Shown: in pieces, positions 8,004 to 35,004 of the stretch
How the letters are laid out: each line of letters opens with the position of its first letter
How positions within the stretch are numbered: the first letter of the stretch is position 1
NCBI GenBank assembly: GCA_046756925.1
Contig: JBHHXH010000001.1
Coordinates: 20,337-84,336, forward strand
Length of the DNA: 64,000 bases
Direction of reading: 5' to 3'
From: Nitrospiria bacterium
GTDB lineage: Bacteria; Nitrospirota; Nitrospiria; SBBL01; JAADHI01
Notes under the pieces: model-generated
Databases searched by the model: none
Told to the model about the DNA's origin: nothing
What the model saw: the letters and a program-made list of their open reading frames with translations, nothing else
Made by a program: the position numbers and the translations under genes

Positions 8004-8999
8004 CTAGTCTACGTAGACGTCTTCGGTCAATGACGAGAGAGGCGGATCGGGGCTTTCGTCCGCGAATTTTACCGCGTCTTGGATGATGCCGTCGATCTCG
8101 TCTTCCATCTTGCGAAGGGCCTTTTCATCGATTTGTTTTTCTTCAAGCAGCCGGTTCTTCAGCCTTTGAATCGGGTCCTTGCATTTCTGCGCGTCAATCT
8201 CTTCCTTGGTGCGATAATGGCCGTGGGCCGGATCGGACATGGAGTGCCCCATGTAACGATAGGTTTGGGCCTCGATGAAGATGGGCCGTTTCGAGGCCCG
8301 GACCCCTTTGATAATCCGTTCCATGTGTTTGTAGGTTTCGAGGATGTTCATGCCGTCGAGATGATGAAAGGGCATGTTGTAGGCCCGTGCAGCATGGGCG
8401 ATGTCGTAAAGGGCCGAGGCGCGTTCAACCGGCGTGCCCATGCCGAAGCGGTTGTTCTCGCAGATGAAGATCACCGGCAGCCGCCAGAGGGCCGCGAGGT
8501 TGAGCGATTCGTGGAAGGCCCCGGTCGGCACCGCCCCTTCACCGAAAAAACACAGTACCACCTGATCGCGCCTTTCGTACTTGATCGCAAAGCCCATGCC
8601 CGTGGCCAAGGCGATGTGACCGCCGACGATCCCGTGCCCGCCCATGAAATGGCGGGAGACATCGAAAAGGTGCATCGACCCGCCCTTGCCCTTGGATACC
8701 CCCGTGGCCTTGCCAAAGAGCTCGGCCATGATGCGCTTGGGTTCCACGCCGCGCGCCAGTGCATGTCCATGATCGCGATAGGTCGAAATGACGTAGTCGT
8801 CTTCCCGCGCGGCCCCGATAGCCCCCACGGCGACCGCCTCTTCGCCGATGTAGAGATGACAGAAACCCGCGATCTTGGCCAAGGCATACATCTCGGCGGT
8901 CTTCTCTTCGAAGCGGCGGATCAATATCGCCGTTCGTAGGAGGCTGCGGAAATCGATGTGATCGCTCTGGCTTTTTGGGTCTGCTTTTGTTTTGGGCAT
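8004..8999 (-). CDS. pdhA: 2-oxoacid dehydrogenase E1 alpha subunit (TPP-dependent)
   Basis: TPP-binding region FFGEGAVPTGAFHESLNLAALWRLPVIFICENNRFGMGT. I trimmed the track start at 9071 to the ATG at 8999 (MPKTKAD...). Confidence 0.88.
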   Translation of the reverse strand: MPKTKADPKSQSDHIDFRSLLRTAILIRRFEEKTAEMYALAKIAGFCHLYIGEEAVAVGAIGAAREDDYVISTYRDHGHALARGVEPKRIMAELFGKATGVSKGKGGSMHLFDVSRHFMGGHGIVGGHIALATGMGFAIKYERRDQVVLCFFGEGAVPTGAFHESLNLAALWRLPVIFICENNRFGMGTPVERASALYDIAHAARAYNMPFHHLDGMNILETYKHMERIIKGVRASKRPIFIEAQTYRYMGHSMSDPAHGHYRTKEEIDAQKCKDPIQRLKNRLLEEKQIDEKALRKMEDEIDGIIQDAVKFADESPDPPLSSLTEDVYVD

Positions 9000-9206
9000 T
9001 AGATAGTGAAATGTACAGATATTGGATATCAATCTTAACATCGGATTTCCGAAAAAGCAAAGCAGGATCACCCTGAGAAGACCGCATTCATTGACCGGTG
9101 TTGGGACAGGAGGGTATACTCGCGGCGATTCGTTTTTTAGGGGAAAATCGTTAGATCAAAGGGTGAATTTAAAGATTTTATTTTTCGATTTGAAAGCTAA
9201 AACAAT

Positions 9207-10388
9207 ATGAAGAGATCGAAAAAGGAAGCAGTCAAAACCGTCGAATCGAAGTTGCGCGCGGCGGGTTGGTTGATTCAAGACGCGGACGATCTGAAGATTC
9301 CTTCGTTCGGAGGGCTGTCGGTTTGTGATGTGCGCTTGTCACGCAATTACGGTATGGCCGACATGCTCCTCTACGTTGATGGCAAAGTCGCGGGATTGAT
9401 CGAGATCGATACCCAAAGCAATGTCTTATTTGGCGTCGATCCCCAAATAGAAAAATACCGACTTGGACTCCCGATCATCTTGCCCGTCTATACCCGGCCC
9501 CTGCCTTTTTTGTATCAGAGCAATGGCGAAGAAATCCGATTCACCAACGCCTTCGATGCCGAGCCGCGAGCGCGAGCGCTCTTTGCCTTTCACAAACCGG
9601 AAACTTTGAAAGCATGGCTGGAAGACGGGATGATCGGCAGCATGCCGCGGGATATGGCGGCCGCGGAATCCATAGAGCATGGCCGACGCGGCGCGACCCT
9701 ACAGGAGCGTTTGTGGATCAATATGCCGCCGCTCATTGAGGATGGGCTTTCGCTGATCCAATGCGACGCCATCAATGCCTTGGAGCAGTCGCTCAAAAAA
9801 AATAATCCGCGCGTGCTCATTCAAATGAAAGATGCAACCGAGAGAAAGGCAACCGCTCTTCATTTGATCAATCGACTGATTCGTTTCGCCGACGCGCGCC
9901 GCGTGCTTTATCTCGTGAATTCGGAAAATATTGGCCGCGAGATCCACAAACGATTTCAAGATTGCGTTTCGCCTTACGACAAAAAGGCCTTGACACAAAC
10001 CTTGCCTGTTCAGCATGTAACAGACAACCAACTGGATTTGAACGCACGGATATGCATCGCAACACTACCGCGCATGTATGACCTATTGACCAATGAAACC
10101 ATGAATGAAAAAGGAAGTGAAAAATCGCCGGAAGAAATTCTCGAAACGGTCGCCCCCCTTCAATACAATCCCGACATCCCCATCGGAACCTTCGATATCG
10201 TCGTCATCGACACCTGCAGTGCTCCCCTTACACGGCACTTTAGGCGAGTACTGGGGTATTTCGATGCCTATGTAATTGGCATGAGCGGAAAAGCGGATGA
10301 GAAGACGGTTGAGTTGTTTGACGGGAATTTGTTACTGGGCGATGAAAAGGATGAAAACGGTGGGCTAGTTGTGATTTCTGAGGTGTAG
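9207..10388 (+). CDS. HsdR-N / SF2-helicase-like protein with degenerate catalytic motifs (probable pseudoenzyme or eroded restriction subunit)
   Basis: The N-terminus resembles the type I restriction R-subunit nuclease domain (ADMLLYVDGKVAGLIEID). It is followed by one RecA-like lobe in which the Walker A position reads LIQMKDATERKATAL and the DEAH position reads FDIVVIDTCS. The protein ends after lobe 1 at 393 aa. Confidence 0.55.
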   Translation: MKRSKKEAVKTVESKLRAAGWLIQDADDLKIPSFGGLSVCDVRLSRNYGMADMLLYVDGKVAGLIEIDTQSNVLFGVDPQIEKYRLGLPIILPVYTRPLPFLYQSNGEEIRFTNAFDAEPRARALFAFHKPETLKAWLEDGMIGSMPRDMAAAESIEHGRRGATLQERLWINMPPLIEDGLSLIQCDAINALEQSLKKNNPRVLIQMKDATERKATALHLINRLIRFADARRVLYLVNSENIGREIHKRFQDCVSPYDKKALTQTLPVQHVTDNQLDLNARICIATLPRMYDLLTNETMNEKGSEKSPEEILETVAPLQYNPDIPIGTFDIVVIDTCSAPLTRHFRRVLGYFDAYVIGMSGKADEKTVELFDGNLLLGDEKDENGGLVVISEV

Positions 10389-10519: not shown

Positions 10520-11515
10520 TTGTCTTTCTATGATCAAAACGGGTTCACTCCCGCCTGGTGGTGCAGAAACCCTCATCTCCAAACGGTATGGCGCAAGTTT
10601 TTCGGCGAGATCCCAGCTCTTCCCCTCCGTCGCGAGCGCTGGGAGACGCCCGACGACGATTTTCTCGATCTCGATTTTCTCGATCCTACGACTCAAAGCA
10701 ATGAAGTTCCGACGGTTTTGCTGCTTCACGGCTTCGAGGGCTCTTCACAAGCGAAATATATACTGGGCATGCTGCGTTGGATCGGAAAAATGGGATGGCG
10801 CGGGGTCGCCTTGAACTTCCGGTCGTGCAGCGGAGAGATCAATTGGCAGCCGCGCTTCTATCACTCCGGCGAAACGTGCGATCTCGATTGGGTGATCCAA
10901 AAATTAGCGTCGCGTTTTCCGAGCCGATCTCTTCTCATTGTCGGATTTTCCCTAGGTGGCAACGTTCTTTTAAAATGGCTGGGTGAAAAGGGCGAGCGGG
11001 TGTCCGATTCTGTTCGTGCCGCCGTGGCAATCTCCGTGCCCTTCGATTTGGGTGTCGCCGCCCACAATATCGATTCGGGGTTCGGCAAGCTCTACGGGAT
11101 GAACTTCCTGCAAAGCCTGAAGCAAAAGGTCTTAAAAAAAGAGGAGACCCTTCCCGGACTGATCGATCGAAAGAGGGTCCAGCGGATTCGATCCTATATT
11201 GATTTTGAAGACCGGATTTTCGCACCCATCCATCGATTTAAAGACGCAAGGGATTATTGGACGCGCTGTAGCGCCAAACGTTTTTTGGAAGGCGTGCGCC
11301 GGCCCACGCTCATCCTCCACGCCATGGATGACCCCTTTTTACCGGGCACCACGCTTCCGATAGAGCGCATCCGCCAATCCAAATGGCTTGTGGAAAGGAT
11401 GACCGATTTCGGCGGACATGTCGGCTTTGTGGAAGGGGCTTGGCCCTGGCAGCCGCGATATTGGGCAGAAGCGCAGACGATGGGGTTTTTGACGTCCTTC
11501 ATGAGGGGGGATTAA
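10520..11515 (+). CDS. Alpha/beta-fold hydrolase, YheT-like
   Basis: N-terminal PAWWCRNPHLQTVW motif and nucleophile elbow GFSLGGN. TTG start as given in the track. Confidence 0.75.
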   Translation: MSFYDQNGFTPAWWCRNPHLQTVWRKFFGEIPALPLRRERWETPDDDFLDLDFLDPTTQSNEVPTVLLLHGFEGSSQAKYILGMLRWIGKMGWRGVALNFRSCSGEINWQPRFYHSGETCDLDWVIQKLASRFPSRSLLIVGFSLGGNVLLKWLGEKGERVSDSVRAAVAISVPFDLGVAAHNIDSGFGKLYGMNFLQSLKQKVLKKEETLPGLIDRKRVQRIRSYIDFEDRIFAPIHRFKDARDYWTRCSAKRFLEGVRRPTLILHAMDDPFLPGTTLPIERIRQSKWLVERMTDFGGHVGFVEGAWPWQPRYWAEAQTMGFLTSFMRGD

Positions 11516-11584: not shown

Positions 11585-12022
11585 TCAGTTCATTTCTTGG
11601 GCGTGTTTTTGGCCCTCCATGGCGTGCAACATGGCGTCTTTCCCATGATCCATCATGATATCGGCATGGCCTTTTTCGCCGTGCTTGATCGCGGTTTTTC
11701 CATGAGAGATGGCTTCCTTCACATGATCCATCGCCTCCGGGCCGTGCATCTTGGTCGCCTTGCTGGCATCCGAGGCGCGGATCCCTTCCACCCCATGGGT
11801 GAGACACTCCTGTGCGTGGTTGACCATGGCTTTAAAATGTTTCAAAGCCACCTTGGGATGGCCTTGGCCGCCATGATCGAGGGCCTTTTCTCCCGAAGCG
11901 ATCATGCCGTTGCAATGATTTTTTGCTTCATCGACGTGCATTTTAGATCCCGCAAAGGCGATCCCGGATAATGTGAAAACAGAAATGACCGCGACAACGG
12001 CCGCAATGAACTGATGACGCAT
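11585..12022 (-). CDS. Small histidine-rich periplasmic metal-binding protein (SmbP-like)
   Basis: Signal peptide followed by repeated His-rich helical motifs (HVDEAKNH, HAQECLTHG, DHVKEAISHGKTAIKHGEKGH). These resemble my recollection of Nitrosomonas SmbP. Confidence 0.65.
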   Translation of the reverse strand: MRHQFIAAVVAVISVFTLSGIAFAGSKMHVDEAKNHCNGMIASGEKALDHGGQGHPKVALKHFKAMVNHAQECLTHGVEGIRASDASKATKMHGPEAMDHVKEAISHGKTAIKHGEKGHADIMMDHGKDAMLHAMEGQKHAQEMN

Positions 12023-17313: not shown

Positions 17314-17643
17314 ATGGGAAAATATCGGCACCACGTCTTTGTCTGCATCAACGAAAGGGACGCAAACGACCCCAGGGGCTGCTGTGCGGCCAAGGGCTCC
17401 TTCGAGATACGGGATGCTTTTAAAGAGGAAATTTTTAAGCGGGGCCTGAAGGGGATTGTCCGGGCGAATCAAGCGGGCTGTCTCGATGCCTGCGTGTTCG
17501 GCCCCTCGGTGGTTGTCTATCCCGGAGGCACATGGTACCGCGTCAAAAACCGGGAGGATGTGCTCGAAGTGGTGGAGAAGCATCTCGAAGGTGGGAAAAT
17601 CGTTGAAAGTCTTTTGATTCCTCGATCATGGGCAAAAGGATGA
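17314..17643 (+). CDS. Thioredoxin-like [2Fe-2S] ferredoxin
   Basis: HHVFVCINERD...GCCAAKGS...AGCLDACVFGPSVVVYP pattern. Confidence 0.75.
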   Translation: MGKYRHHVFVCINERDANDPRGCCAAKGSFEIRDAFKEEIFKRGLKGIVRANQAGCLDACVFGPSVVVYPGGTWYRVKNREDVLEVVEKHLEGGKIVESLLIPRSWAKG

Positions 17644-19073
17644 GGCAAGCAAGCAGTGCGACCGGATTGATCGGCATCGATACCGTCACCGATTCCGGGG
17701 TCGATCCGATCGACAGCGAATTTTTAAAATGCGATCGACCGGTCTTTCGGGTTTCTTTTCACACCCTCGGTTGCCGACTGAATCAAAGCGAGAGCGCGGC
17801 CTTGGAAGGCGGCTTTGCGGCCGAAGGATTTGAAATCGTCGAAGAGATTGCGCCCTCGGATCTGTGCATCATCAACACCTGTTTTGTCACCGGCCAGGCC
17901 GAGGCCAAGTGCCGTCATCTCATCCGGAAACTGCTGAGGCAAAACCCCCGTGTCTTTGTTGCGGTGACCGGTTGCTATGCCCAGGCGGGCATGGAGGCCC
18001 TCCGTCAAATCGCGGGTATCGATCTCATTGCCGGGACGGATCAAAAGATGGCCCTGCCTGGCCTCGTCCGGACCGTCCTCGAGGACAAGGGTGCTTTCGA
18101 AGAAGGCGCCATCCAAAAATCCGAAACTCCCGTCGTTTATCATTCGCCCCGCATCGGCCACGCGGATTTTGAGATCCCCAATTTGTCCGTGTTGGAAGAA
18201 GCGACCCGGTCCAATGTGAAGATTCAAGACGGTTGCGATTTTTTTTGCAGCTTCTGCATTATTCCGACGACGCGGGGCCGCTCGCGCAGCCGCCGCTTCG
18301 ACGACGTGATCCGCGAGGCCCTGAACTGGGCGACGCGGGGCCATCTTGAAATCGTACTCACCGGTGTCAACCTGGGCGAATACCAACACGAAGGCCGCGA
18401 CTTGGCCGATTTGATCGAGGCCCTGGACGAGATCGACGGGCTAGAACGTATCCGGATTTCTTCCATCGAACCGACGACAGTTTCGGAGCGGATGATTCAC
18501 CTCATGGCTGATTCGAACAAGCTTTGCCCCTATCTCCATCTTCCCTTGCAAAGCGGGAGCGACCGCGTTCTGGATGCGATGGGGAGGCGCTATACGCGGG
18601 AAGATTACCGATCATTCGTTATGGATGTCATGGAGAACATCCCAAACTTGGGCTTGGGTACGGATGTCATGGTCGGCTTTCCGGGCGAGACCGAGGCCGA
18701 TTTTGAGGAGACCGTGTCTCTTATTGAAACCCTGCCTTTTACTTATCTCCATGTCTTCCCCTATTCGCGCCGGGAGGGAACCCGCGTCACGCGGAGCAAT
18801 CTTTCGTCCGTGGATCCGACGGTGATCAAGGCGCGCGCGGCAGCGCTCTGTGCTTTGTCGGATCAAAAGCGGAAAACCTTTTACCGCAAGGCCATCGGCG
18901 CAACGGCGTCGGTGCTCTTCGAGACCCGACTGGCGGACGGCCGTTTCAGCGGTTTAACGGAGAACTACATCCGCGTGGCCGCCGTTTCGGATCGCGATTT
19001 GAGAGGGCGTATCGCGCCGGTTCGCATCGCATCCCTTGCGGATAAGTTCGCCGCGGGGAAATTGGCCGGATGA
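17628..19073 (+). CDS. mtaB: tRNA t6A37 methylthiotransferase MtaB-type radical-SAM enzyme
   Basis: UPF0004 N-domain (FHTLGCRLNQSES...INTCFVT), radical-SAM motif CDFFCSFCIIP and a TRAM-like C-terminus. The exact start (17628 or 17640) is uncertain. Confidence 0.8.
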   Translation: MGKRMRQASSATGLIGIDTVTDSGVDPIDSEFLKCDRPVFRVSFHTLGCRLNQSESAALEGGFAAEGFEIVEEIAPSDLCIINTCFVTGQAEAKCRHLIRKLLRQNPRVFVAVTGCYAQAGMEALRQIAGIDLIAGTDQKMALPGLVRTVLEDKGAFEEGAIQKSETPVVYHSPRIGHADFEIPNLSVLEEATRSNVKIQDGCDFFCSFCIIPTTRGRSRSRRFDDVIREALNWATRGHLEIVLTGVNLGEYQHEGRDLADLIEALDEIDGLERIRISSIEPTTVSERMIHLMADSNKLCPYLHLPLQSGSDRVLDAMGRRYTREDYRSFVMDVMENIPNLGLGTDVMVGFPGETEADFEETVSLIETLPFTYLHVFPYSRREGTRVTRSNLSSVDPTVIKARAAALCALSDQKRKTFYRKAIGATASVLFETRLADGRFSGLTENYIRVAAVSDRDLRGRIAPVRIASLADKFAAGKLAG

Positions 19074-20434
19074 AGGTCTATCTCGAAACCTATGGCTGCC
19101 AAATGAACGTGGCCGACTCGGAACTGATCCGTTCCATCCTCAGCGCGGCGGGACATGACTTGTCGCCCCAATTGGAAGGCGCGGATGTCGTCCTCGTCAA
19201 CGCCTGCGCCATTCGCGAAAACGCCTACCGGAAGATCTATGGCCGACTCGACTTGCTCCGCCCGCTTCGCCGACAATTCAAGCACGAAGGGCGGCCCTTT
19301 GTCGTCGGCGTGCTCGGCTGCATGGCGCAAAATATGAAAGAGGCCCTCTTTCGGCATCCCGTCGTCAACCTCGTGGCCGGGCCGGATAGCTATCGCGCCC
19401 TGCCCGATTTAATTGCCAAGGCGGGCACTTCGAAGGAGGATACCATTCGCTCGGGACGAAGGCCGAAGATCCGAAAAGAAATCGACGCCGATCTGTCCAT
19501 CGTTGAGACCTACAGCGGGATCAATCCCCTGCGTTTCGACGGCGTGAATGCCTGGGTCGTGGTCATGCGGGGCTGCGACAATTTCTGCACCTTTTGCGTC
19601 GTGCCCTATACGCGAGGTCGGGAGCGCAGCCGCCCGATGGGCGAGATTATGGAAGAGGTCCGCCGCCTCGCCGAGCAAGGATTCAAGCAGGTCACCTTTC
19701 TGGGGCAAAACGTCAATTCCTACCGCGCCGACAGGGCGTCCTTTGCCGATCTACTCCTGGGCGCGGCGGAGGTACCCGGCATCGAACGTGTGCGTTTTAC
19801 CTCTCCGCATCCCAAAGATTTTCCGGAACCCTTGTTGGAAGCCATCGCATCCCATCCGAAGATTTGCAAACACATCCACCTGCCCTTGCAGGCGGGCAGC
19901 GACCGCATTCTCGACTTGATGAATCGAACCTACACCCGCGTGGAATTTTTATCGCTGGTCGAGAAAATCAGAACGATTATACCGAATGTGGCCTTGACCA
20001 CTGACTTGATCGCCGGCTTTCCCACGGAAACGGAGGTCGATTTTCAAGACACCGCCGATGTGGGTGCGCGCGCGTACTTCGACAGCGCCTATATTTTTAA
20101 ATACTCCGAACGGATTGGGACGATTGCGGCCCGGCAATATCCCGACGACGTGCCGCCCGAGGTGAAAACCGATCGCATCGTCCGACTCTTCGATCTGCAG
20201 CATGGGATTGCCCTAAAAAAAAATCGGGAAAAAATCGGCCGAGCCTTCGATGTTTTGATTGAGGGTGAGGACACAAAGCGGGCGGGCTGCCAAATCGGAA
20301 AAACCGACGGGCATATGACCGTGGTTTTTCCTGGCACGGGCTTGCCCCCCGGCACCATGGTGCCGGTGGAGATCAGAGAGGCGACGAAGGCCGCCCTTTT
20401 CGGCGCGCCCCTGGCCCTTTCGTGCATTTCTTGA
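19070..20434 (+). CDS. miaB: tRNA-2-methylthio-N6-dimethylallyladenosine synthase
   Basis: YLETYGCQMNVADSE, radical-SAM motif CDNFCTFCVVPYTRGRE and a TRAM domain. There is a 4-nt ATGA overlap with mtaB. Confidence 0.88.
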   Translation: MKVYLETYGCQMNVADSELIRSILSAAGHDLSPQLEGADVVLVNACAIRENAYRKIYGRLDLLRPLRRQFKHEGRPFVVGVLGCMAQNMKEALFRHPVVNLVAGPDSYRALPDLIAKAGTSKEDTIRSGRRPKIRKEIDADLSIVETYSGINPLRFDGVNAWVVVMRGCDNFCTFCVVPYTRGRERSRPMGEIMEEVRRLAEQGFKQVTFLGQNVNSYRADRASFADLLLGAAEVPGIERVRFTSPHPKDFPEPLLEAIASHPKICKHIHLPLQAGSDRILDLMNRTYTRVEFLSLVEKIRTIIPNVALTTDLIAGFPTETEVDFQDTADVGARAYFDSAYIFKYSERIGTIAARQYPDDVPPEVKTDRIVRLFDLQHGIALKKNREKIGRAFDVLIEGEDTKRAGCQIGKTDGHMTVVFPGTGLPPGTMVPVEIREATKAALFGAPLALSCIS

Positions 20435-20435
20435 A

Positions 20436-21284
20436 ATGGGAGGTCTTAAACATGCGCCCGACCTCAAAAACGCCACGATCCAAAGAGGAAAGGTCGCACT
20501 TGCCTATACCTTGATCCATCCGGTTCCCTCCAAGGCGGCAGCGATCATCCTCCACGGTCTGAACGATCACAAGGGGCGGTACAGACATCTTCAGGAAGGC
20601 TTGGCAAGGGCGGGTTATTCCAGTCTCGCCTATGACCAACGCGGATTCGGGCTTTCCGATGGAAAACGGGCGGATGTTGCCGACTACCGCGAATTTTTTG
20701 AGGACCTGTCTGCGATCGTTAAGCTGCTGCGAAAGGAACACCCCCATATTCAAGTGGTTCTCATCGGCCACAGCTTGGGCGGGGCCATTGCGGCGGCCTA
20801 CTGTATCGATCATCCAAACGAGACGGATGGATTGGTCTTGTCCTCGCCCGCTTATGACGTTCCCATGCTTCCGTTTCCTTTGGAACCCCTGGCCCATCTC
20901 CTCTATAAATGCATGCCGGGCGCTGCGTTCCCCTATCCAAACCCCGATGGAAAACGGAGCCGGGATCCGGCGATCGATATAGCTGTGGCCAAGGATCCGC
21001 TCATTGCGGTCAAAGGGACCCCACGGTTTTATGTCGAATTTCGAAAAATGAACCGTTATCTTCAGGAACATGCGCAAGCAATCACACTCCCCACCCTCAT
21101 TCTTCAAGGTGGCGCGGATAGTATCGTTCGGGCCGAGGGAGCCCGGGCTTTATTCCGACGCCTGGGGCATCCAAAAAACCACCTTCATTGGTATGAGGGT
21201 TTTTATCACGAGGTTTTTCATGAGATCGGACACGAGGGGGTGATTGCGGACCTGGTCGGGTGGCTGGAAACCGCCCTCGCATGA
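20436..21284 (+). CDS. Alpha/beta hydrolase (lysophospholipase / monoacylglycerol-lipase-like)
   Basis: LHGLNDHKGRY and the nucleophile elbow IGHSLGG. 282 aa. Confidence 0.75.
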   Translation: MGGLKHAPDLKNATIQRGKVALAYTLIHPVPSKAAAIILHGLNDHKGRYRHLQEGLARAGYSSLAYDQRGFGLSDGKRADVADYREFFEDLSAIVKLLRKEHPHIQVVLIGHSLGGAIAAAYCIDHPNETDGLVLSSPAYDVPMLPFPLEPLAHLLYKCMPGAAFPYPNPDGKRSRDPAIDIAVAKDPLIAVKGTPRFYVEFRKMNRYLQEHAQAITLPTLILQGGADSIVRAEGARALFRRLGHPKNHLHWYEGFYHEVFHEIGHEGVIADLVGWLETALA

Positions 21285-21348
21285 TACACTGTCCCCATGG
21301 GATTGCACGTTTGTTTTGCAGTCACCGTATTTTAAAGGGAGGCACCCC

Positions 21349-21960
21349 TTGCGCTTAAGACAAGCGATTTTAATTTCGACCCTCTTTTTCCTGATACTTG
21401 CCCGGGCCGCGGCGGCGGATCGAGAAACACTGGCGGAAGGTTTTGGGAAGTCCAAATGGGGAATGACGCTCGACGAAATCGTATCGGTTTATCAAATAGA
21501 GTTGAACCAACCCAAGAGTGCCGATGCCGAAGGAACGTGGGCCGTGCTTGGTCCGGCGCCCGGAGAATTGACCGTTTCGGGAGAGGCGCTCGGTGAAGCC
21601 GAGGTCCGCTCGGTCAGTTTCGGGATCCACTCAAAATTCGGGCTGGCCATCATTCACGTCCGCTTTAAAGATACCAACGATCCAAAATATGTTGAAAAGC
21701 AGCTTCCGCTTTGGGAAGCCCGTTTTGGAACACCCAAGGAACGTCGTCCCGGCCCAAAAATCGTTTGGGAGGATGCGGAAAGCCATGTGGAATTGACCTA
21801 CCATACCGTTTCGCCCCGTCACCCCACACCTTCCGACCACCTGGCCATCGTACTTTGGAGCCTTCCCCTCATGGAGAAGATCGAAGCGGAAGGGATCGAG
21901 GAAAGGCTGCCGGATGTGGAAACGCTCGCCCCATTGCAGGCGCCGCATAAAAGCAAATAG
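21349..21960 (+). CDS. Hypothetical secreted protein
   Basis: Probable TTG start at 21349, 6 nt after AAAGGGAGG. Signal peptide LRLRQAILISTLFFLILARAAAA. No family recognised. Confidence 0.45.
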   Translation: MRLRQAILISTLFFLILARAAAADRETLAEGFGKSKWGMTLDEIVSVYQIELNQPKSADAEGTWAVLGPAPGELTVSGEALGEAEVRSVSFGIHSKFGLAIIHVRFKDTNDPKYVEKQLPLWEARFGTPKERRPGPKIVWEDAESHVELTYHTVSPRHPTPSDHLAIVLWSLPLMEKIEAEGIEERLPDVETLAPLQAPHKSK

Positions 21961-22039
21961 CGCCGCAAGCGACCAAACCATCACGGCATGTGTATATCCT
22001 CTTTATTTTCGGAAAACCATTAGGAGCCAACCGATAGAC

Positions 22040-23719
22040 ATGAACAGTATCGATCAAAAAAAGGATCCTTCCGTCTTTCATTTCATCATGATCAAGCCTT
22101 CGCACTACGACGACGAGGGCTATGTGATTCAATGGCTGCGTTCGTCTATTCCTTCCAACACCTTGGCCGTCATCAACGGCCTCGCCTTGGATTGCATTGA
22201 AAGAAGGGTTTTGGGCGACACAGTAACCATTGTCTTGCAGACTTTTGACGAAACCAACACGCGAATCGATATCAAAGGCTTAAGCCGCCAAATTCTTGCC
22301 TCCGGCAACCATGCCCTCATCGGCCTGGTCGGCGTGCAAACCAATCAATTTCCCCGTGCGATGGATATCGCCCGTCAATTTCGTCAGCAGGGCATCCAGG
22401 TTGGTATCGGCGGCTTTCACGTCAGCGGATGCCTGGCGATGCTCCCCAAACTCCCGGGCGATTGCCAGGCGGCGATGGACATGGGAATCTCTCTCTTTGC
22501 CGGTGAGGTGGAAGGGCGGCTGGACACGCTTCTTCGGGATGCCTATGCCAAAGAGATGAAGCCCCTCTACAACTTTATGGACGATCTCCCAAATATGACG
22601 GGCGTGGCCGTCCCTTACCTCCCTTTCGACATGGTCAAGAAGACCTCCGGTCTCCGGACCAGTTTCGACGCCGGGCGGGGCTGTCCTTTTTTGTGTAGCT
22701 TCTGCACCATTATCAATGTTCAAGGACACAAGTCCCGCTACCGGAGTGCGGATGATGTCGAAACCATTGTGCGAAAGGGCTTCGCAGAAGGCATCACAAA
22801 TTTTTTTATCAGCGACGACGACTTCGCACGCAACCGCTGCTGGGAGGCGATCTTCGACCGTCTCATCGAATTAAGGGAAAAGGACGGCATCAAAATCCGG
22901 ATGGTGATCCAGGTCGATACCATGTGTCACAAGCTCCCGCGCTTTATCGAAAAAGCGGGGCGGGCGGGAGTGTCGCGGGTGTTTATCGGACTGGAGAGCA
23001 TCAATCCCGAGGCCCTGAAAGGCGCCAAGAAAAAGCAGAATAAGATCTCCGAGTATCAAACGATGCTCCATGCCTGGCATCGCGTCGGCGCGCTGACCTA
23101 TGCGGGCTACATCTTGGGTTTTCCCACCGACACTCCGGAGAGTATCCTTAACGACATCAAGACGATTCAAAAAGAAATCCCCATCGATCTGCTGGAATTT
23201 TTCATCCTCACGCCCCTGCCCGGTTCCGAGGACCACAAAGTCCTTTTTGAAAATGGGGTTGAGATGGCTTCAGACATGAACACCTACGATGTGGTTCATG
23301 TCACCACGGCACACCCGGTCATGTCGAAGGCCGAATGGCTGGGGATTTACCAGCAGGCCTGGGACGCCTACTACACGCCGGAACACGTCGAAACCGTGAT
23401 CCAACGGGCCAAAACATGGGGCTATAACCTGGACGACATGATGCAAAAACTCCTGCATTTTTATGCCTGTCCCAAAATTGAAAAGGTCCATCCCCTCGAA
23501 GGCGGACTGATCCGAATCAAATCAAGAACGGATCGACGCCATGGCCTGCCCATCGAAAACCCGCTTGTTTTTTATCCGCGTTATGTGGCCGAGACCTTCG
23601 GCAAGGTTGTGCACTTCTTCGTCTTGTGGCGGCGTTTTAAACGGATCCTCAAGCGGGTCAAGAATCGGCCGATTGAACAGCCCTTGGATGAGGCCTTGAA
23701 GGTGGCGGCGGAATCTTGA
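22040..23719 (+). CDS. B12-binding-domain radical-SAM protein
   Basis: N-terminal cobalamin-binding-like domain followed by GRGCPFLCSFCTI. Start trimmed to ATG 22040 (MNSIDQKK). Confidence 0.8.
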   Translation: MNSIDQKKDPSVFHFIMIKPSHYDDEGYVIQWLRSSIPSNTLAVINGLALDCIERRVLGDTVTIVLQTFDETNTRIDIKGLSRQILASGNHALIGLVGVQTNQFPRAMDIARQFRQQGIQVGIGGFHVSGCLAMLPKLPGDCQAAMDMGISLFAGEVEGRLDTLLRDAYAKEMKPLYNFMDDLPNMTGVAVPYLPFDMVKKTSGLRTSFDAGRGCPFLCSFCTIINVQGHKSRYRSADDVETIVRKGFAEGITNFFISDDDFARNRCWEAIFDRLIELREKDGIKIRMVIQVDTMCHKLPRFIEKAGRAGVSRVFIGLESINPEALKGAKKKQNKISEYQTMLHAWHRVGALTYAGYILGFPTDTPESILNDIKTIQKEIPIDLLEFFILTPLPGSEDHKVLFENGVEMASDMNTYDVVHVTTAHPVMSKAEWLGIYQQAWDAYYTPEHVETVIQRAKTWGYNLDDMMQKLLHFYACPKIEKVHPLEGGLIRIKSRTDRRHGLPIENPLVFYPRYVAETFGKVVHFFVLWRRFKRILKRVKNRPIEQPLDEALKVAAES

Positions 23720-26365: not shown

Positions 26366-27493
26366 TTAGGTATAGAGGTCGTCTTTAAACCGTTTCTGGA
26401 TGGCCTCCACTTCCCTCGGATGACCAATCAGCGCCTCAACACAGGCTTCGTCGAGTTGTGTTCCGGAGATCCGTCTGAGTTCGGTAAAGGCTTCTTCATT
26501 GGTCCAGGCGGTTTTATAAGGCCGTGCGCTGGTGAGTGCGTCGAAGATATCGGCCACGGAGATGATTCTGGCTTCGATGGGAATGGCCTCCCCTTGTTTT
26601 CCATGCGGGTAGCCTCTTCCATCGACGTGTTCATGATGAGATTCTACAATATTCCGCATTATTGCAATTTGTTGCAAGGATTCGGGGCCGAAATCTTCGA
26701 GAATGGCGTCGATGATCTCCCGGCCCTTTTCCGCATGCGATTTCATGACTGCGTATTCCGATTCGCTGAGCCGCCCCGCTTTTTGAAGAATCGCATCGGG
26801 TACGCCGATTTTGCCGATGTCGTGGAGCGGCGCAAACAAAAAGACATGCTCGATGAATTCGTCGCTAAAATGGTAGACACCCGCCAAATCCCTCGCAATG
26901 AGTCTTGCATAGTGAGACATTCTGTCTAGGTGAGTGCCGGTTTCCATATCCCGAAAGCGTGTGATGCTGCGTGCGGCTTTCACGGTGGCGAGCATGGTTT
27001 GAATCGTCATCAGGTGATTGATCACCGTCAACGATATCAGATGTCCGAAGAGATTCAAGTCATGGACCACATCGGATCCCAGGCTATGCGCTCTATTCGA
27101 ATCGAAAAAGACAAAACCAAAAAAGATGCCGTTCATGACCATGGGCATCGTATAGCTGGCGCGATAGCCCTGCTTAAGGATCCGGAGGATGTGTTCTTTT
27201 CGATACGAACGCAGGCAATCAAGATTGTTGATCACCCGCGGACTTCCCGTCTTGAAAATGTCATTCAGCGATTGGGAGTCGCTTAATTTCGCTTGATAAT
27301 GCGAAAGTGGGTCTTTTCCTCCACTGCTGTGACTGTAGCTTTTGAGGATATCGGTCTTCGCATCGTACACAGCCACGGAGATTCGATCGATAAAGTTGAA
27401 TTTCTTTTTCAAAACCCCATGGATGGCCGTCAGTTTTTCCGTTGACGTGATGTCTTTGTCGAGTTCACACAATAGGTCCTGGTCGATCACCAT
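26366..27493 (-). CDS. GAF-domain HD-GYP phosphodiesterase
   Basis: HDIGKIGVPD...HHEHVDGRGYPHG...ADIFDALTSARPYK, with an N-terminal GAF-like ~170 aa. Confidence 0.85.
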   Translation of the reverse strand: MVIDQDLLCELDKDITSTEKLTAIHGVLKKKFNFIDRISVAVYDAKTDILKSYSHSSGGKDPLSHYQAKLSDSQSLNDIFKTGSPRVINNLDCLRSYRKEHILRILKQGYRASYTMPMVMNGIFFGFVFFDSNRAHSLGSDVVHDLNLFGHLISLTVINHLMTIQTMLATVKAARSITRFRDMETGTHLDRMSHYARLIARDLAGVYHFSDEFIEHVFLFAPLHDIGKIGVPDAILQKAGRLSESEYAVMKSHAEKGREIIDAILEDFGPESLQQIAIMRNIVESHHEHVDGRGYPHGKQGEAIPIEARIISVADIFDALTSARPYKTAWTNEEAFTELRRISGTQLDEACVEALIGHPREVEAIQKRFKDDLYT

Positions 27494-27694
27494 GGTGTCA
27501 TCCTATTCATTACAAAAGTATTTTCAGGGACATTCGCAAGTATGTTTTTAAGTTAGCTGGGTGAGGTCATTCTGTCAATACGATGAAAAGGGATCCTATC
27601 TCTATATGGAACCGAAAAGGACACACCTTTTTTATCTTCTGCTATAATTTATTCGAATTTCTTCGCCTTTTTGATTCGATAAAACGGGAGAAAA

Positions 27695-29587
27695 ATGGTT
27701 ATTTTTGCAATCGATCTTTTCGGGATTCGCCCCTTTGACCAACCAAAGCGGATCCTCCTAAAACCGGGGATGAATGCCGTCATCGGGCCAAACGGCTCGG
27801 GGAAAACAATGACCTTCCGGACCCTGTCTTCTCTATTCGTCAACACGCCATTCTCAAACATCGTCACCTCCCAAAACCGTCCGGCACAGGCCGCGGTCAC
27901 CTTCCGATCTCAGAATGGGGGTTTTTTCCGCATCGCCCGCGACTACCAAAAAGGCGCCTGGAACCTCTCAAAAATGGACTCCGGCACAAGAACGTTTTCC
28001 ACTGTCGAAACCGATCGGGATAAAATCGGCCGCTGGCTCCGCCAAGAGTCCGGCGGGTTGGATGATCAGAAACGGGGGCTGCTCTTTTTTATCGATCGCT
28101 TCCGTTATCCTTCACACCTATCATCGTCGAAAAAAGACGGCTTGCTCCCTCTGCCCGAATGCTTATCCGATATAACCAACTCGGGGCGTGAAGCGGAAGC
28201 GGAAGCGCAAACACAGCACTCAGCATTAAAACAGTCGAAAAACATCCAATCCTTGAAAACCTTGGAGAAAAAACAGTCGGCCATGGAGGCCGAGTACGAG
28301 GACATGCTCCGCTTACAGGACGAGGCCGCCTCTATACAAAAACGCATCAACCAATGCCATGCCTTGGATGCAAAGATTGCACAAATCGAAGCGGAGGAAG
28401 AGAAGAAATTCCCTCTATTTGCCTCGGAGGGCACCCTGCTGCCGGATCTTCTGAGTGATTATGAGACCGACCAGGTAGAGAAAAAAACGGCACTGGGAGA
28501 AATTGCGGAGGAACGGAAAATCCTGGAGGACGCGTTTTCGGCATTGAAAAATCAAGAATCCGGGTTTTTGAAGGACCGTTTTTGCCAGGCCGGCACGGTC
28601 CTTGTGGCCGCTGCATTTTTACTCCCTTTTTTGATCACCCTATCGGGGTTTCTACGGTATCTTTTTTTGGCGGGCATTTTTGGGGGAAGCGGCCTGTGCA
28701 TATTTGCCTACCTTCGGATTTTACGCCGCGTGGCGGTCCGGAGGAAGATAAAAACGGAACAACGCCATCTTACGGAAGCGGCACAGCGGCTCGAAGACGG
28801 ATTTAGAGAAACGCATCGAGAAGTGGTCGCCTTCATGCAGAAGACCGGCAGTCAAGATATCGCCTCTCTCAAGACGGCTCAGTCGACCTTCACGAACTTG
28901 GTCAAGCAAAAGCAAAATGCATCCGAGGAGAAGGCTCACATCCTCCAAGGAGAGCGCATCGAGGCCTTGGAGGATACAGTGAAAAGCTTGGCGGATGAGG
29001 CCGAGAAATTGAAAGAGAAACTTCAGGGATTCGAAGAGATCACCAGCGAAATTTATCGCCTCCAAGAGGAGACGCGGGGTGAGCACTCCCGCCTATTGTT
29101 GCCTTCATCTCCAATGAAGTCCTCCGTCTTTTCCTTTCCAGAACTTGAGGCGGGCCCCGCCGATACGGCGGAAGATTGCTTTATGTCTTCCATTCTTGCC
29201 GTTGCAAAAGGCGGAAGTTCCGATTCCAAACGCAGGCAGTTACAGGAAGATGTCGGACGCTTATACGATTTGTTTCGACCGGGAAAGTCCGGGACCATCC
29301 GTGTCAATGAAGACGGGCGTGTTTTCGAGGGGAGCACCCCCTTAAACCGCCTGAGTTCGGGCATGGCCGATCAGGTCTTTCTCTCGATTACCCTCTCCGT
29401 CGTCGAGCAATTTGAGGATGTGGCCTTTCCCATCCTACTGGATGACCCTTTTTTCAGCTTCGATAAGCCGTCGAAGGAAATCGCGGGCAAGATCATCCGG
29501 GACATTTCCAAGCATCGCCAGGTGATTTTTTTCTCCAACGAGACCTTGCCCTCCACCGAAGACGGACACCAGATTCAGCTGGCTTAA
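27695..29587 (+). CDS. SMC/YhaN-like AAA ATPase with a central transmembrane hairpin
   Basis: Walker A GPNGSGKT, long coiled-coil segments and two hydrophobic helices (VLVAAAFLLPFLITLSGFLRYLFLAGIFGGSGLCIFAYL). The C-terminus carries the signature LSSGMADQ and Walker B FPILLDDPF. Confidence 0.7.
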   Translation: MVIFAIDLFGIRPFDQPKRILLKPGMNAVIGPNGSGKTMTFRTLSSLFVNTPFSNIVTSQNRPAQAAVTFRSQNGGFFRIARDYQKGAWNLSKMDSGTRTFSTVETDRDKIGRWLRQESGGLDDQKRGLLFFIDRFRYPSHLSSSKKDGLLPLPECLSDITNSGREAEAEAQTQHSALKQSKNIQSLKTLEKKQSAMEAEYEDMLRLQDEAASIQKRINQCHALDAKIAQIEAEEEKKFPLFASEGTLLPDLLSDYETDQVEKKTALGEIAEERKILEDAFSALKNQESGFLKDRFCQAGTVLVAAAFLLPFLITLSGFLRYLFLAGIFGGSGLCIFAYLRILRRVAVRRKIKTEQRHLTEAAQRLEDGFRETHREVVAFMQKTGSQDIASLKTAQSTFTNLVKQKQNASEEKAHILQGERIEALEDTVKSLADEAEKLKEKLQGFEEITSEIYRLQEETRGEHSRLLLPSSPMKSSVFSFPELEAGPADTAEDCFMSSILAVAKGGSSDSKRRQLQEDVGRLYDLFRPGKSGTIRVNEDGRVFEGSTPLNRLSSGMADQVFLSITLSVVEQFEDVAFPILLDDPFFSFDKPSKEIAGKIIRDISKHRQVIFFSNETLPSTEDGHQIQLA

Positions 29588-29650: not shown

Positions 29651-31588
29651 TCATCTCCGAAAACGAACGAAAATTCGCCCCCGGATGCCGGGTGCCGGGA
29701 CACCGACGGCCTCTTCATAATCGGCGTCAAATAGATTATCGAGAACCACGCTCCATTTCCATTGCGCCGTCGGTGTCCAATGCGCCGCGAGATCGACCCG
29801 GAGATGCGCGTCCAAGTCTCGGTCTCCGGTCGCGATGGAAGAATCCACAGACTCTCCCACATACAAAATCGAGAGATTCGTGCTGAGGCTTGCTTTGGGC
29901 CGCCAATACGTATTCAGGCCACCACGCCATTCGGGCCGGTTGCGCAGTTCCTCCCGGCTTCCCTCGATATCCATGTGGGTATAGGTGAGGTGGGTGTTCA
30001 ACCAAAGATCGGGTGTCGATTTAAAAGACAGTTCGACTTCAAGGCCTTGGCCGGTCACCTCCGAACGGTTGACCAATGAAGGAGGGGGTCCTTCCGCCAA
30101 GTCGATTAAATTTTCATAGCGATTGTGAAAATAGACCGCGCTCACCTGGATACCCTCCAACGAAAGCATTTGTTCGATGCCGATTTCAAGGCTTTTGGCG
30201 GTTTCCGGCAGCAGCGAAGGGTTTCCGACAATGGCGTTGCCCAAGGCAAAAAAACTCGGTAGCTTGAAACCCTCTCCCCAGTCGGCTTTGAAGGTCGTTC
30301 CGCTCGAAACGACGGCATACATAAAACCGAGGCGCGGTGTGATTTCAGGATCGAAGCGCTCGGGATCGTCGACGCGAACGCTGCCTTGGAGACGGGCGCC
30401 CATTACCGGAATCATCTCGGTTTCGAGATAAGCGCTGTAGACCGCTCTGTCTTGTTCGAAACGATTGGGCAAGGGACCATCCAAAAACAAAAAACCCTCG
30501 CTCTCCCCCTTCTCGAGTTGGGCTTCCACCCCCAAACCGAAGTGCAGCGATGCAGAGGGAGAGAAGAGGGTATCGACACTCAAGTGTGAGCGATCGAAGT
30601 GATTGTCGCTCCGATTGGGCGGAATTCCAAAAGGGTCTCTGAGGCCCGGCGCCACCCCGGGTGAGTCGATCTCCTCTTGCCGATGATAATGGGCGGCATT
30701 GAGGGTGTATTCCCAAGAAGCGTTCAGGTCTTGACCGAAAGAAAATCCGGCCGTGAACATTTCTGCCTTGCGTTCGTCAAGTTCGGACAAGACGGCAAAT
30801 ACAGGACCGCCGCTGTCGTCCGGGAAGGATTCGCTTCGACTGCCGGACCAATGCAACGACAACTCCAGCCAGCTCGTATGGGAGGGCGCCAGTGACAGCT
30901 TGCCACCGATCTGCTTGCCGACAAAGCGGTTCCCCTCAACCACGCCGCCGTCATCGACATAAGAGAGGTTCAGTGCGTAGTCCGCGGAACCCAAGGGGCC
31001 GCGCGTTTCGACTCCGGCGCGGTAAAAGTCCCCCGCGCCGCCTCCCAAGTCGATGACCGTTTGGGGACGGGCCGTCCCGGAACGGGTCGTGATGTGGATG
31101 ACGCCCCCCATCGCATCCGATCCGTAGACCGAAGAAAGCGGTCCTCGGACGATTTCGATCCGTTCGATGCCAGCCGGACTCAGTGTCGACATATCGAAGG
31201 ATCCACCTCGGCTGTTGGTCGGGTCGTTGACCTTGACCCCGTCGATTAAGATCACGGTGAAATTCGGGTCGGCTCCCCGGACATAGACGGAAGCGATCCC
31301 GCCGCGCCCGCCCGGCTGATCGATGTGGAGGCCGGGCACTTGCCGAAGCAGGTCCACCACGCTGACCGCCTGCCTTGCCTCGATCTCCTCACGTTCGATC
31401 ACGGTGATCCCGGCCGATGCCGTTTCTATTGTCGCGGGAAGGTGCGAGGCCGAAACCACGAGGGGATCGAGTACCTTTGGAGGCTCCTGCTCACCAAGGA
31501 CTTCCCTTCCCAAACTCAAAAAAACGAACAGGAGGCCTAAGATTAGACGCACGGATGGACCCTTCGCCCGGCAGGAATATTCATTCAA
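29651..31588 (-). CDS. TonB-dependent outer-membrane receptor
   Basis: TonB-box-like DPLVVSAS, plug motifs (VYVRGADPNFTVILIDGVKVNDP, IEIVRGPLSSVYGSDAMGGVIHI) and a long beta-barrel region. The start is ambiguous: TTG 31588, or the in-frame GTG 36 nt downstream. Confidence 0.85.
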   Translation of the reverse strand: MNEYSCRAKGPSVRLILGLLFVFLSLGREVLGEQEPPKVLDPLVVSASHLPATIETASAGITVIEREEIEARQAVSVVDLLRQVPGLHIDQPGGRGGIASVYVRGADPNFTVILIDGVKVNDPTNSRGGSFDMSTLSPAGIERIEIVRGPLSSVYGSDAMGGVIHITTRSGTARPQTVIDLGGGAGDFYRAGVETRGPLGSADYALNLSYVDDGGVVEGNRFVGKQIGGKLSLAPSHTSWLELSLHWSGSRSESFPDDSGGPVFAVLSELDERKAEMFTAGFSFGQDLNASWEYTLNAAHYHRQEEIDSPGVAPGLRDPFGIPPNRSDNHFDRSHLSVDTLFSPSASLHFGLGVEAQLEKGESEGFLFLDGPLPNRFEQDRAVYSAYLETEMIPVMGARLQGSVRVDDPERFDPEITPRLGFMYAVVSSGTTFKADWGEGFKLPSFFALGNAIVGNPSLLPETAKSLEIGIEQMLSLEGIQVSAVYFHNRYENLIDLAEGPPPSLVNRSEVTGQGLEVELSFKSTPDLWLNTHLTYTHMDIEGSREELRNRPEWRGGLNTYWRPKASLSTNLSILYVGESVDSSIATGDRDLDAHLRVDLAAHWTPTAQWKWSVVLDNLFDADYEEAVGVPAPGIRGRIFVRFRR

Positions 31589-31825
31589 TCACCTCCGCCG
31601 CACATTCCTAAAGAAGGAGGACACCTTCGATTCAGGACAGAACAATCTCAAGTTTGCAGGCCGAAGCTTATCAAAAGGAAAACGCCTTTGCCAGCATGAA
31701 ATAAAGAAGGTTTCGATTCTCAAAGTGTCTTTACAAACGCCTTAAAAATTTTTTGGGTATGAAAAAATTTTTCATCGTTGTAAAATGCAGCCGAAATAAA
31801 ATTCCCATTATTGATCGTATCCATC

Positions 31826-31855
31826 CAAATAAGACCTTGGCAAATAAGACCTTGG
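31826..31855. repeat. Perfect tandem direct repeat, 2 x 15 bp (CAAATAAGACCTTGG)
   Basis: Read directly. It lies 10 nt upstream of the MoaD-like GTG, in the divergent intergenic region. Confidence 0.9.
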
Positions 31856-31865
31856 CTCGATCGTT

Positions 31866-32135
31866 GTGGCGTTCGTTTACCTGACTCCTCTTTTAAGCCG
31901 CCATGTAGACACGGCCGGTTTCGAAGTCACCGGTGAAACCCTTTGTGAGATCTTTGAGGCGGTCTTTTTAGAACGTCCGGCTCTGCGCCCATATCTACTG
32001 GACGACCAAGGCCGTTTGAGGCGGCATGTCACGGTGTTCATCGACGGGCAACGTCTTTCGGACCGAGAGACCCTCAACGATCCGGTCCGGCGTTCGAGCG
32101 AGGTTTATATCATGCAGGCCTTATCAGGGGGATAG
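31866..32135 (+). CDS. MoaD/ThiS-family ubiquitin-like sulfur-carrier protein
   Basis: 89 aa with a beta-grasp family pattern (FEVTGETL...HVTVFIDGQRL...EVYIMQALSGG) and a C-terminal Gly-Gly. Confidence 0.75.
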   Translation: MAFVYLTPLLSRHVDTAGFEVTGETLCEIFEAVFLERPALRPYLLDDQGRLRRHVTVFIDGQRLSDRETLNDPVRRSSEVYIMQALSGG

Positions 32136-32137
32136 TG

Positions 32138-32904: not shown

Positions 32905-32932
32905 CAAGACGATCCCTCGAGGAGGAAAGACG

Positions 32933-33535: not shown

Positions 33536-33583
33536 CGCTCTCCGATCCGCTTAACTGTACCCTTCTTCAGTGAAGGAGATCGA

Positions 33584-34171: not shown

Positions 34172-34245
34172 ACCAAATAAGCCAAAAAAAACCGGGCGAG
34201 GCCGCCGCCCCGTCCGGTCAATATTGCACTCAGAAGGCCTTTGTT

Positions 34246-34578: not shown

Positions 34579-34633
34579 CGCTTCTCCTTGCTTTTTCTAA
34601 AATTTTTCCATTAACGACTTCACTGCCATGTCA

Positions 34634-34882: not shown

Positions 34883-35004
34883 CCTTGGTCCTTTATATTA
34901 ATCGACTTCGTTTAAAAAATTATAACCCAGCCACTTTCCGATCGTAAAGGAAAAATGTCGGAGCGGTTCTGACAAGGCAAAGTGGTCTTTGATATGATTT
35001 CGAT

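Follow-up and report, generated by a model that had tools for sequence, protein, structure and literature searches.

What keeps a gene for half of a restriction enzyme, its catalytic motifs replaced, among the housekeeping genes of a Nitrospiria chromosome? The question is raised by an open reading frame (ORF) at 9207..10388 (+), stop codon included, in a 64-kb window of Nitrospiria DNA (the window being the whole stretch that was analysed). Its 393-amino-acid product, here called the half-HsdR protein, resembles the first half of the R subunit (HsdR) of a type I restriction enzyme. An earlier, sequence-only reading had offered two possibilities, a domesticated non-enzymatic protein or a relic that has not yet gained stop codons. 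We favour the first of these: the product is probably, though not assuredly, a domesticated and catalytically inert HsdR descendant that acts by binding, and not the product of a dying gene.

An in-frame TAA lies three codons 5' of ATG 9207, which is thus the earliest possible start, and the start of the ORF is therefore unambiguous. The product is identical to GenBank MFQ5596435.1 (P0001), from a Nitrospiria metagenome-assembled genome (MAG), whose database label is 'DEAD/DEAH box helicase family protein'. Pfam, NCBIfam and alignment agree with the initial assignment of the ORF as the first half of a type I R subunit. ResIII matched with E=8.7e-9 (35.9 bits against a 22.5-bit cut-off), and NCBIfam NF008521, 'type I restriction-modification system endonuclease', matched with E=4.6e-18 over model positions 279-602 of 1123. 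The HSDR_N match was weak (E=0.052, residues 47-119), whereas full-length HsdRs score E=1e-8. Scores for whole proteins stayed below their cut-offs, at 64.7 bits against 729 for NF008521 and 34.5 bits against 550 for NF046051. No Helicase_C match was found in the protein by Pfam. As the sequence-only reading had proposed, the protein ends after the first RecA lobe, at a point where full-length proteins run on as ADGVNVNYDVYRI into RecA lobe 2.

The predicted fold pointed in the same direction. An AlphaFold2 (AF2) model built from 27 homologues had a mean predicted local distance difference test (pLDDT) score of 84.6 and a predicted template modelling score of 0.86, with the nuclease-like domain forming an alpha/beta fold at pLDDT 86-96. 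Its best fold match in the PDB was 3H1T, a Vibrio vulnificus HsdR fragment (Foldseek E=3.6e-9); EcoR124I HsdR chains came next, along with isolated RecA1 domains from superfamily 2 (SF2) helicases. 3H1T was likewise the sole match of a PDB sequence search with the family profile (E=2.8e-7); the same search with the single half-HsdR protein returned no match. Against viral structures, Foldseek returned generic SF2 helicases only and no phage analogue, and PADLOC gave weak generic 'REase_I' matches without a defence-system assignment.

Full-length relatives of 905-1002 amino acids, found in Nitrospirota, Proteobacteria and other phyla, are 40-43% identical to the half-HsdR protein across its residues 1-377. 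The one from locus L031 carries HSDR_N, ResIII, Helicase_C and EcoEI_R_C (PF08463, E=5.9e-42), the last of which Pfam did not find in the half-HsdR protein, and in both L031 and L058 a Methylase_S (hsdS) gene lies directly downstream of the full-length hsdR. Because of these domains and the adjoining hsdS genes, we take the parent lineage to be a genuine type I R subunit of EcoEI/EcoAI architecture. On sequence and predicted fold, the half-HsdR protein is a homologue of type I HsdR that comprises the nuclease-like domain and RecA lobe 1 only.

We then read the state of each catalytic motif from an alignment of 26 short forms with 49 complete full-length proteins. The peptides quoted in the sequence-only reading, ADMLLYVDGKVAGLIEID, LIQCDAINALEQSL, QMKDATERK and VVIDTCS, are all present at the residues given for them, and the substitutions it had pointed out are borne out column by column. 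The nuclease E-x-K reads (I/V)EAK(K/R) in 48 of the 49 full-length proteins (EGK in the other) and E-I-D in the half-HsdR protein, which places Asp at the Lys position, residue 68. Walker A changes from QMATG(S/A)GKT to QMKDATERK, motif II from TDE(C/A)HRS to IDTCSAP, and motif III from GLTATP (GLTTTP in one) to GMSGKA; the motor motifs are kept in all 49 full-length proteins. In total, the degenerate short group has lost 86 positions at which the full-length proteins are at least 90% conserved, among them positions of motif Ia (D238, R239) and motif Ic (I287, Q288) beside those of motifs I, II and III. Replacement is recurrent: in degenerate members the G-K pair of Walker A becomes Glu (63%) and Arg (84%).

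Some nuclease residues are kept. D52 is invariant and E66 nearly so across the short family; in the QxxxY motif (Q80-Y84), a motif that Sisakova et al. (PMC2475608) defined for HsdR nucleases, the tyrosine does not vary in any of 27 aligned sequences, nor does K83 in the short forms. Position 68, however, may be K, D, Q, N, V, I, R or M, and the nuclease Lys is kept in just 26% of degenerate members. Because the Lys position is unconstrained across the family, DNA cleavage by the half-HsdR protein seems very unlikely. ATP hydrolysis would not be expected either, because SF2 enzymology depends on the P-loop Lys/Thr, the DExH Glu/His and the motif VI arginine finger, all of which are missing.

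This architecture recurs in a family. About 26 distinct short sequences of 372-400 amino acids, plus the exceptional length of 528 in one of them, make up the family, and every member with a named organism comes from Nitrospirota; their database names are 'DEAD/DEAH box helicase family protein' or 'type I restriction enzyme R subunit'. A word-indexed search returned about 18 proteins of 373-399 amino acids on long contigs, and because these contigs reach up to 610 kb the short forms are not contig-end fragments. An exhaustive HMMER search with the short-form profile against 1.84 billion cluster representatives found about seven clusters (50% identity) of short architecture, below which came only full-length proteins of about 930 amino acids or fragments. 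A GTDB scan of one genome per species, followed by ORF calling, placed complete short forms in Nitrospirota MAGs only: L010, L011, L012, L013, L014, L019, L024 (Candidatus Manganitrophaceae) and the 528-amino-acid L021. Nearly all short forms finish within a few residues of a common 'DGLNVIS', the architecture is conserved down to about 40% identity, and all 100 bootstraps of a neighbour-joining tree on 393 common columns recover the short forms as monophyletic. An assembly or frameshift artefact was considered and rejected, as the same ORF ends recur in independent assemblies from many samples. Four truncated ORFs of the full-length type were also seen (L018:4001-5371, L039:4001-4516, L059:3971-5128 and L063:3944-5266, encoding 456, 171, 385 and 440 amino acids). 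All four have arbitrary stop positions; those in L018, L059 and L063 have intact GSGKT/DECH, and that in L039 stops ahead of those motifs. In contrast with the conserved short family, they look like recent pseudogenes or frameshifts.

The short gene is under clear purifying selection. Ratios of nonsynonymous to synonymous divergence (dN/dS), estimated by the method of Nei and Gojobori (NG86) with codon-bootstrap confidence intervals (CIs), were 0.16-0.24 over six unsaturated pairs, and CIs spanned 0.11-0.28 in the three pairs tested. Between L001 and L007 (dS 0.51) the ratio was 0.16 (CI 0.11-0.22); the window gene gave 0.21 against both L001 (dS 1.05, CI 0.15-0.28) and L007 (dS 1.10), as did L003 against L024 (dS 0.47), and group A pairs, described below, gave 0.23-0.24 at dS 0.70-0.78. 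For comparison, neighbouring pdh and lipA genes in the same genome pairs gave 0.04-0.16 (dS 0.29-1.01), and the N-terminal 400 codons of full-length HsdRs gave 0.04-0.24 (dS 0.19-1.47).

Constraint is unevenly spread along the protein. The linker between the two domains (residues 136-180) had a dN/dS of 0.04-0.09 in all but one of six pairs, the exception being 0.14, compared with 0.14-0.28 in the nuclease-like and RecA1-like domains and 0.2-0.8 in the last 17 residues. In the short family the linker carries the motif W.E.GM.G..PRDMAAE..E..RRG.TF.ER..INMP, which in the half-HsdR protein reads PRDMAAAESIEHGRRGATLQERLWINMP, and eight of its residues (R148, D149, M150, E157, R161, G162, I171 and N172) are conserved in short forms only. 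In full-length HsdRs the stretch aligned to the linker is the most variable of all in length and sequence. Judged from these alignments, constraint has shifted from the catalytic motifs to the former linker.

Intermediate states indicate the order of these changes. Five short-branched members, P0006, P0008, P0009, P0053 and L011 (group A), are truncated and have kept most motifs: Walker A G-S-G-K-T in all (K replaced by M in L011), DECH in all but P0006 (DDCR), and the nuclease E-x-K in all but P0053 (E-V-Q). P0007 (SADSDKT / VDVCD) and P0015 (SSGSGKT / VDACS) are intermediate, and the remaining short forms, the half-HsdR protein of the window included, are fully degenerate and sit on longer branches. 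Because some truncated members still hold GSGKT/DECH, truncation predates motif decay, and the simplest history would have one truncation, in an ancestor whose motifs were still whole, and then a step-by-step loss of catalytic residues. P0015 is the 528-amino-acid member (L021:3974-5560, Nitrospiria MAG D_3_bin.29) and has the short-form linker signature. Its residues 13-395 align to residues 7-389 of the full-length L031 protein and its residues 397-523 to L031 620-726 (E=4e-12); RecA lobe 2 has been deleted in frame, part of the helical region is kept and EcoEI_R_C is missing. This arrangement suggests that lobe 2 was lost twice, the second time independently but again at this domain border.

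The gene is surrounded by housekeeping genes and not by restriction-modification (R-M) genes. It lies, as first described, between the pdh operon and a hydrolase: upstream, the pdh operon (E1alpha 8004-9071, E1beta, E2 and E3) is transcribed divergently from it, and downstream is an alpha/beta-hydrolase gene at 10520-11515. Pfam scans of 40 further ORFs in the window found housekeeping genes only, among them uvrC, lipA, pyrF, the pdh operon, molybdenum-cofactor genes, radical-SAM enzymes, ferrochelatase and peroxiredoxin, together with TonB receptors, cobalamin/iron transport, arginine and lysine biosynthesis, and panC. None of these 40 ORFs matched N6-methylase, Methylase_S or Helicase_C, and tblastn with the C-terminal half of full-length HsdR and two HsdS proteins found no match in the window, in keeping with the reported lack of an HsdM or HsdS neighbour. 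No R-M genes (hsdM/hsdS) stand beside the gene in the window or in 12 related short-form loci. Nor was a remnant of lobe 2 or the C-terminus, or an hsdS match, found when HsdR residues 400-933 and two HsdS proteins were compared in any frame with the window and the related loci (tblastn, E<=0.1, covering 4-8 kb around the gene in most of the 12 loci and less at contig ends), apart from L021, which retains only an in-frame piece of the helical region. An all-vs-all BLAST of the ORFs flanking the 13 loci revealed no neighbour conserved across the family, only partners conserved within sub-clades. R-M genes are missing from all of these loci, and none of the neighbours is common to the whole family; we read the pattern as that of an old, vertically inherited chromosomal gene without a linked partner, and not of a mobile defence island.

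Taken together, these observations outline how a domesticated, non-enzymatic protein could have arisen. Truncation of a copy of a functional hsdR, a single event in an ancestor whose motifs were still intact, would have removed lobe 2 and the C-terminus; the catalytic motifs would then have decayed as a formerly variable linker became a fixed, strongly constrained motif. The resulting protein would be unable to hydrolyse ATP, translocate DNA or dock on a methyltransferase. Its two old folds may serve as a scaffold and the new linker motif as an interaction surface, of which the still-acidic nuclease pocket (D52, E66, QxxxY) is perhaps a part, and the partner would be an unlinked protein or nucleic acid. 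We do not claim DNA binding; a protein partner or an intramolecular latch is just as possible. The loss of the parent's catalytic residues, together with purifying selection in a conserved monophyletic family, is what would be expected of a pseudoenzyme. A more specific proposal, which we put forward tentatively as somewhat less probable than its negation, is that of an exapted defence gene: a Nitrospirota lineage, including relatives of Candidatus Manganitrophaceae, may have turned half an HsdR into a chromosomal, vertically inherited non-enzymatic factor whose newly fixed linker motif (PRDMAAE..RRG.TF.ER..INMP) binds a cellular partner unrelated to restriction. Under this proposal lobe 2 would have been lost twice, independently, at the same border, most members having acquired a stop codon there and the 528-amino-acid variant an in-frame deletion, and this would reflect selection against the motor.

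Several points weigh against a domesticated protein that acts by binding. Only the Lys of the nuclease site is substituted, and with D52, E66 and QxxxY in place residual metal binding or nuclease activity is possible; BamHI-type PD-(D/E)xK enzymes carry an acidic residue (Glu) at the Lys position. The dN/dS of the short gene is 2-4 times that of the neighbouring pdh genes, indicating moderate constraint, and dS of about 1 for the window pairs is nearing saturation. The tree is a simple distance tree, and long branches in it could have misplaced P0015 or shifted the family among the full-length clades. The linker was modelled at low confidence (pLDDT 52-61). The search for hsdM/hsdS was confined to the window and the related loci, and unlinked hsdM/hsdS, a full-length hsdR or a lobe-2 gene elsewhere is possible. 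Finally, the protein is acidic (isoelectric point (pI) 5.5, net charge -8) and its linker is net acidic, which leaves strong DNA binding unsupported. Only the nuclease-like domain is a little more basic than its full-length counterparts (pI 8.0 vs 6.6); this difference is not decisive, and we set electrostatics aside as support for DNA binding.

Among the alternatives, the one that survives best, though we consider it unlikely, is that the protein remains enzymatically active, as a metal-dependent nuclease that stands alone, with a variant D52/E66/D68/QxxxY site and a dead RecA1 lobe that is regulatory or binds substrate. The persistence of D52, Y84 and, nearly always, E66 across the family speaks for it, as do the complete D...ExK of most group A members and the general precedent of PD-(D/E)xK enzymes that use Glu for Lys. 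Such freedom at position 68 is nevertheless unexpected for a catalytic residue, and selection does not hold the nuclease domain more tightly than the RecA1 lobe, both having a dN/dS of about 0.2; it is the linker that is constrained.

Improbable, and a little more so than a surviving nuclease, is a modulator that acts in trans on a type I R-M system elsewhere, either as a dominant-negative subunit or as the decoy that the sequence-only reading had suggested, competing with full-length HsdR or soaking up a phage anti-restriction factor. The protein does descend from a bona fide hsdR lineage, and full-length members of that lineage in Nitrospirota adjoin hsdS. In EcoR124I and EcoKI structures, however, lobe 2 and the C-terminal regions attach HsdR to the M2S1 core, and the absence of lobe 2 and EcoEI_R_C from the half-HsdR protein weakens the decoy idea. 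The anti-restriction proteins Ocr and ArdA target the methyltransferase core and not HsdR. The 13 loci, moreover, show no hsdM/hsdS linkage and have stable housekeeping synteny in place of defence islands.

We give very little credence to a plain pseudogene, that is, a recently truncated hsdR drifting neutrally that has not yet gained internal stops. Three substituted catalytic motifs and a dN/dS above that of the pdh genes are what such a gene might show. So is its G+C content at third codon positions, which at 0.59 is below the 0.72-0.76 of the neighbouring pdh/arg genes (0.62 in the downstream hydrolase), a value that also fits low expression or an older foreign origin. Yet about 26 sequences, some only 40% identical, share the architecture and the stop position and form a monophyletic family, the CIs of dN/dS reach at most 0.28, a new motif is strongly constrained, the missing half has left no downstream remnant in the window or beside 11 of the 12 related loci, and true recent fragments such as those in L018, L039, L059 and L063 differ in having odd stop positions and, where they reach them, intact motifs. 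It was on the conserved family, dN/dS, the missing lobe-2 remnant and the new motif that we rejected the relic offered in the sequence-only reading. That reading had also described intact-motif orthologues combined with neutral evolution as the signature of a pseudogene; orthologues with GSGKT/DECH were found, but evolution at dN/dS 0.16-0.24 is not neutral. Least credible of all is a split motor, the N-terminal half of a two-gene HsdR with lobe 2 and the C-terminal domain encoded separately, which could draw on the intact Walker A and DECH of truncated group A members but has no lobe-2 or C-terminal homologue in the window or near most of the 12 loci (tblastn), and could not reconstitute an ATPase in the window protein with Walker A, DExH and motifs Ia, Ic and III gone.

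The features of the half-HsdR gene and its upstream region are collected in Table 1. A scan with the promoter consensus found 3 sites where 1.6 were expected, so that the promoter candidate listed there has weak support; a terminator scan found none that was convincing.

Table 1. Sequence features of the half-HsdR gene and its 5' flank, in window coordinates.
Feature	Position	Strand	Residues and remarks
Candidate sigma-70-like promoter TTGACC-18-TATACT	9091..9120	+	10/12 consensus matches; in the 135-bp divergent intergenic region with pdhA
PD-(D/E)xK (HSDR_N-type) nuclease-like domain	9207..9611	+	Residues 1-135; Pfam, alignment with full-length HsdRs, AF2
Nuclease motif remnant ADMLLYVDGKVAGLIEID	9357..9410	+	Residues 51-68; D52 and E66 kept, Lys position 68 is Asp
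QxxxY motif QIEKY, kept	9444..9458	+	Residues 80-84; RecB-family/HsdR nuclease motif
Inter-domain linker	9612..9746	+	Residues 136-180; most constrained region of the protein
Family-specific linker motif PRDMAAAESIEHGRRGATLQERLWINMP	9645-9728	+	Residues 147-174
Degenerate RecA-like lobe 1 of SF2 motor (ResIII)	9747..10334	+	Residues 181-376; Pfam ResIII at residues 184-361, Foldseek
Q-motif-like LIQCDAINALEQSL	9753..9794	+	Residues 183-196; aligns with full-length 'LWPAQI.AI.NLE.SL'; E193 invariant
Walker A (motif I) remnant QMKDATERK	9822..9848	+	Residues 206-214; replaces QMATGSGKT; column-by-column alignment
Walker B/DEAH (motif II) remnant VVIDTCS	10200..10220	+	Residues 332-338; replaces I(I/V)(V/I)TDE(C/A)HRS; Asp335 kept, Glu and His gone
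Motif III remnant VIGMSGKA	10272..10295	+	Replaces LIGLTATP; alignment columns
C-terminal end GGLVVISEV	10359..10385	+	Family consensus DGLNVIS; aligns with 'ADGVNVNYDV' at lobe 2 start

Within sub-clades, the short gene keeps different company. In the window, L001 and L007 it is divergent from pdhA, and L001 shares more of the neighbourhood, with an alpha/beta hydrolase, a 145-amino-acid ORF at the position equivalent to that of the window's SMBP gene (below), GBBH-like_N and an FGE-sulfatase. Five loci of one sub-clade have the short gene divergent from genes for a 327-330-amino-acid secreted protein and a 65-67-amino-acid membrane protein (L003:6594-7858, L009:6584-7854, L013:2571-3858, L014:2554-3827 and L024:2522-3832, all on the minus strand); the secreted protein has no Pfam domains and is 47-80% identical between the five loci, and neither protein is present in the window. 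Directly upstream of intact-motif genes of the group A type, and on the same strand, L005:7377-7976, L012:3410-3952 and L011:717-1130 encode a 199-amino-acid secreted, Cys-containing protein without Pfam domains. The gap to the short gene is 25 bp in L005, and the two may form an operon; the all-vs-all BLAST of flanking ORFs found no copy of this protein in the window. In L008, which holds a distant member of the family, the short gene lies between trpF and a dihydrolipoyl-dehydrogenase-like gene (L008:9164-10582) that follows it by 42 bp. The pdh operon of the window clade ends with E3, and this adjacency to dihydrolipoyl-dehydrogenase or pdh genes in both settings is probably a coincidence.

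Other genes of the window were noted in passing. The second gene downstream of the half-HsdR gene, at 11585-12022 (-), encodes a small, His-rich metal-binding protein (Pfam SMBP, E=1.1e-10). Within 17628-23719, two MiaB/RimO-like radical-SAM methylthiotransferase paralogues lie side by side (UPF0004 and Radical_SAM, the second also with TRAM); after them come an alpha/beta hydrolase, an ORF without domains and another radical-SAM protein, the third, of 601 amino acids. At 26366-29587, an HD-domain (HD_5) protein (26366-27493, -) stands beside a 630-amino-acid AAA_23/SMC_N-type ATPase (27695-29587, +), which could be an ATPase of DNA-repair or defence type. The stretch 29651-45285, with two TonB-dependent receptors, two Peripla_BP_2 proteins, a FecCD permease and a cobalamin adenosyltransferase, is probably a region for cobalamin or iron-siderophore uptake.

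R-M genes are usually viewed as working defence modules or as decaying remnants, and the short family would be a third case: a fragment of a defence enzyme kept for a long time, through divergence to about 40% identity, after it appears to have lost every catalytic function. The series from intact-motif through intermediate to fully degenerate members offers a tidy natural example of how a pseudoenzyme may originate, and the shift of constraint to the former linker marks out a definite stretch to mutate in the search for a new function. For annotation, too, the family matters: under their present helicase and restriction labels, which are misleading, short forms would be miscounted as defence or helicase genes in Nitrospirota. 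The impact is limited by the small size of the family and its confinement to uncultured or hard-to-grow lineages.

In the searchable literature we found no pseudoenzyme derived from HsdR or any other type I restriction subunit, no account of a conserved family of truncated or degenerate HsdRs, and nothing on R-M in Manganitrophus. With a functional HsdR of EcoEI/EcoAI architecture, the half-HsdR protein shares the nuclease fold, the RecA1 fold and QxxxY; it differs in having no intact triad, complete motor, docking domain, hsdM/hsdS neighbourhood or equivalog score, in its length of only 393 amino acids and in a conserved linker motif of its own. 3H1T likewise covers the N-terminal part of an HsdR, but it is a fragment of a longer protein with intact 'ATGTGKT' and 'DECH', and is neither naturally truncated nor degenerate. 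The Sau1 hsdR of Staphylococcus aureus is unlinked and encodes a full-length, active subunit that works with distant hsdMS loci. The half-HsdR gene resembles such an 'orphan HsdR', as the term is used in PMC4447248 and PMC4231737, in standing away from hsdM/hsdS, but is half-length and has lost its catalytic motifs. There is a parallel, too, with pseudoenzymes in general (reviewed in PMC10211241), such as degenerate nuclease or helicase domains that serve as binding modules; the half-HsdR protein resembles them as an enzyme homologue without catalytic residues that is retained under purifying selection.

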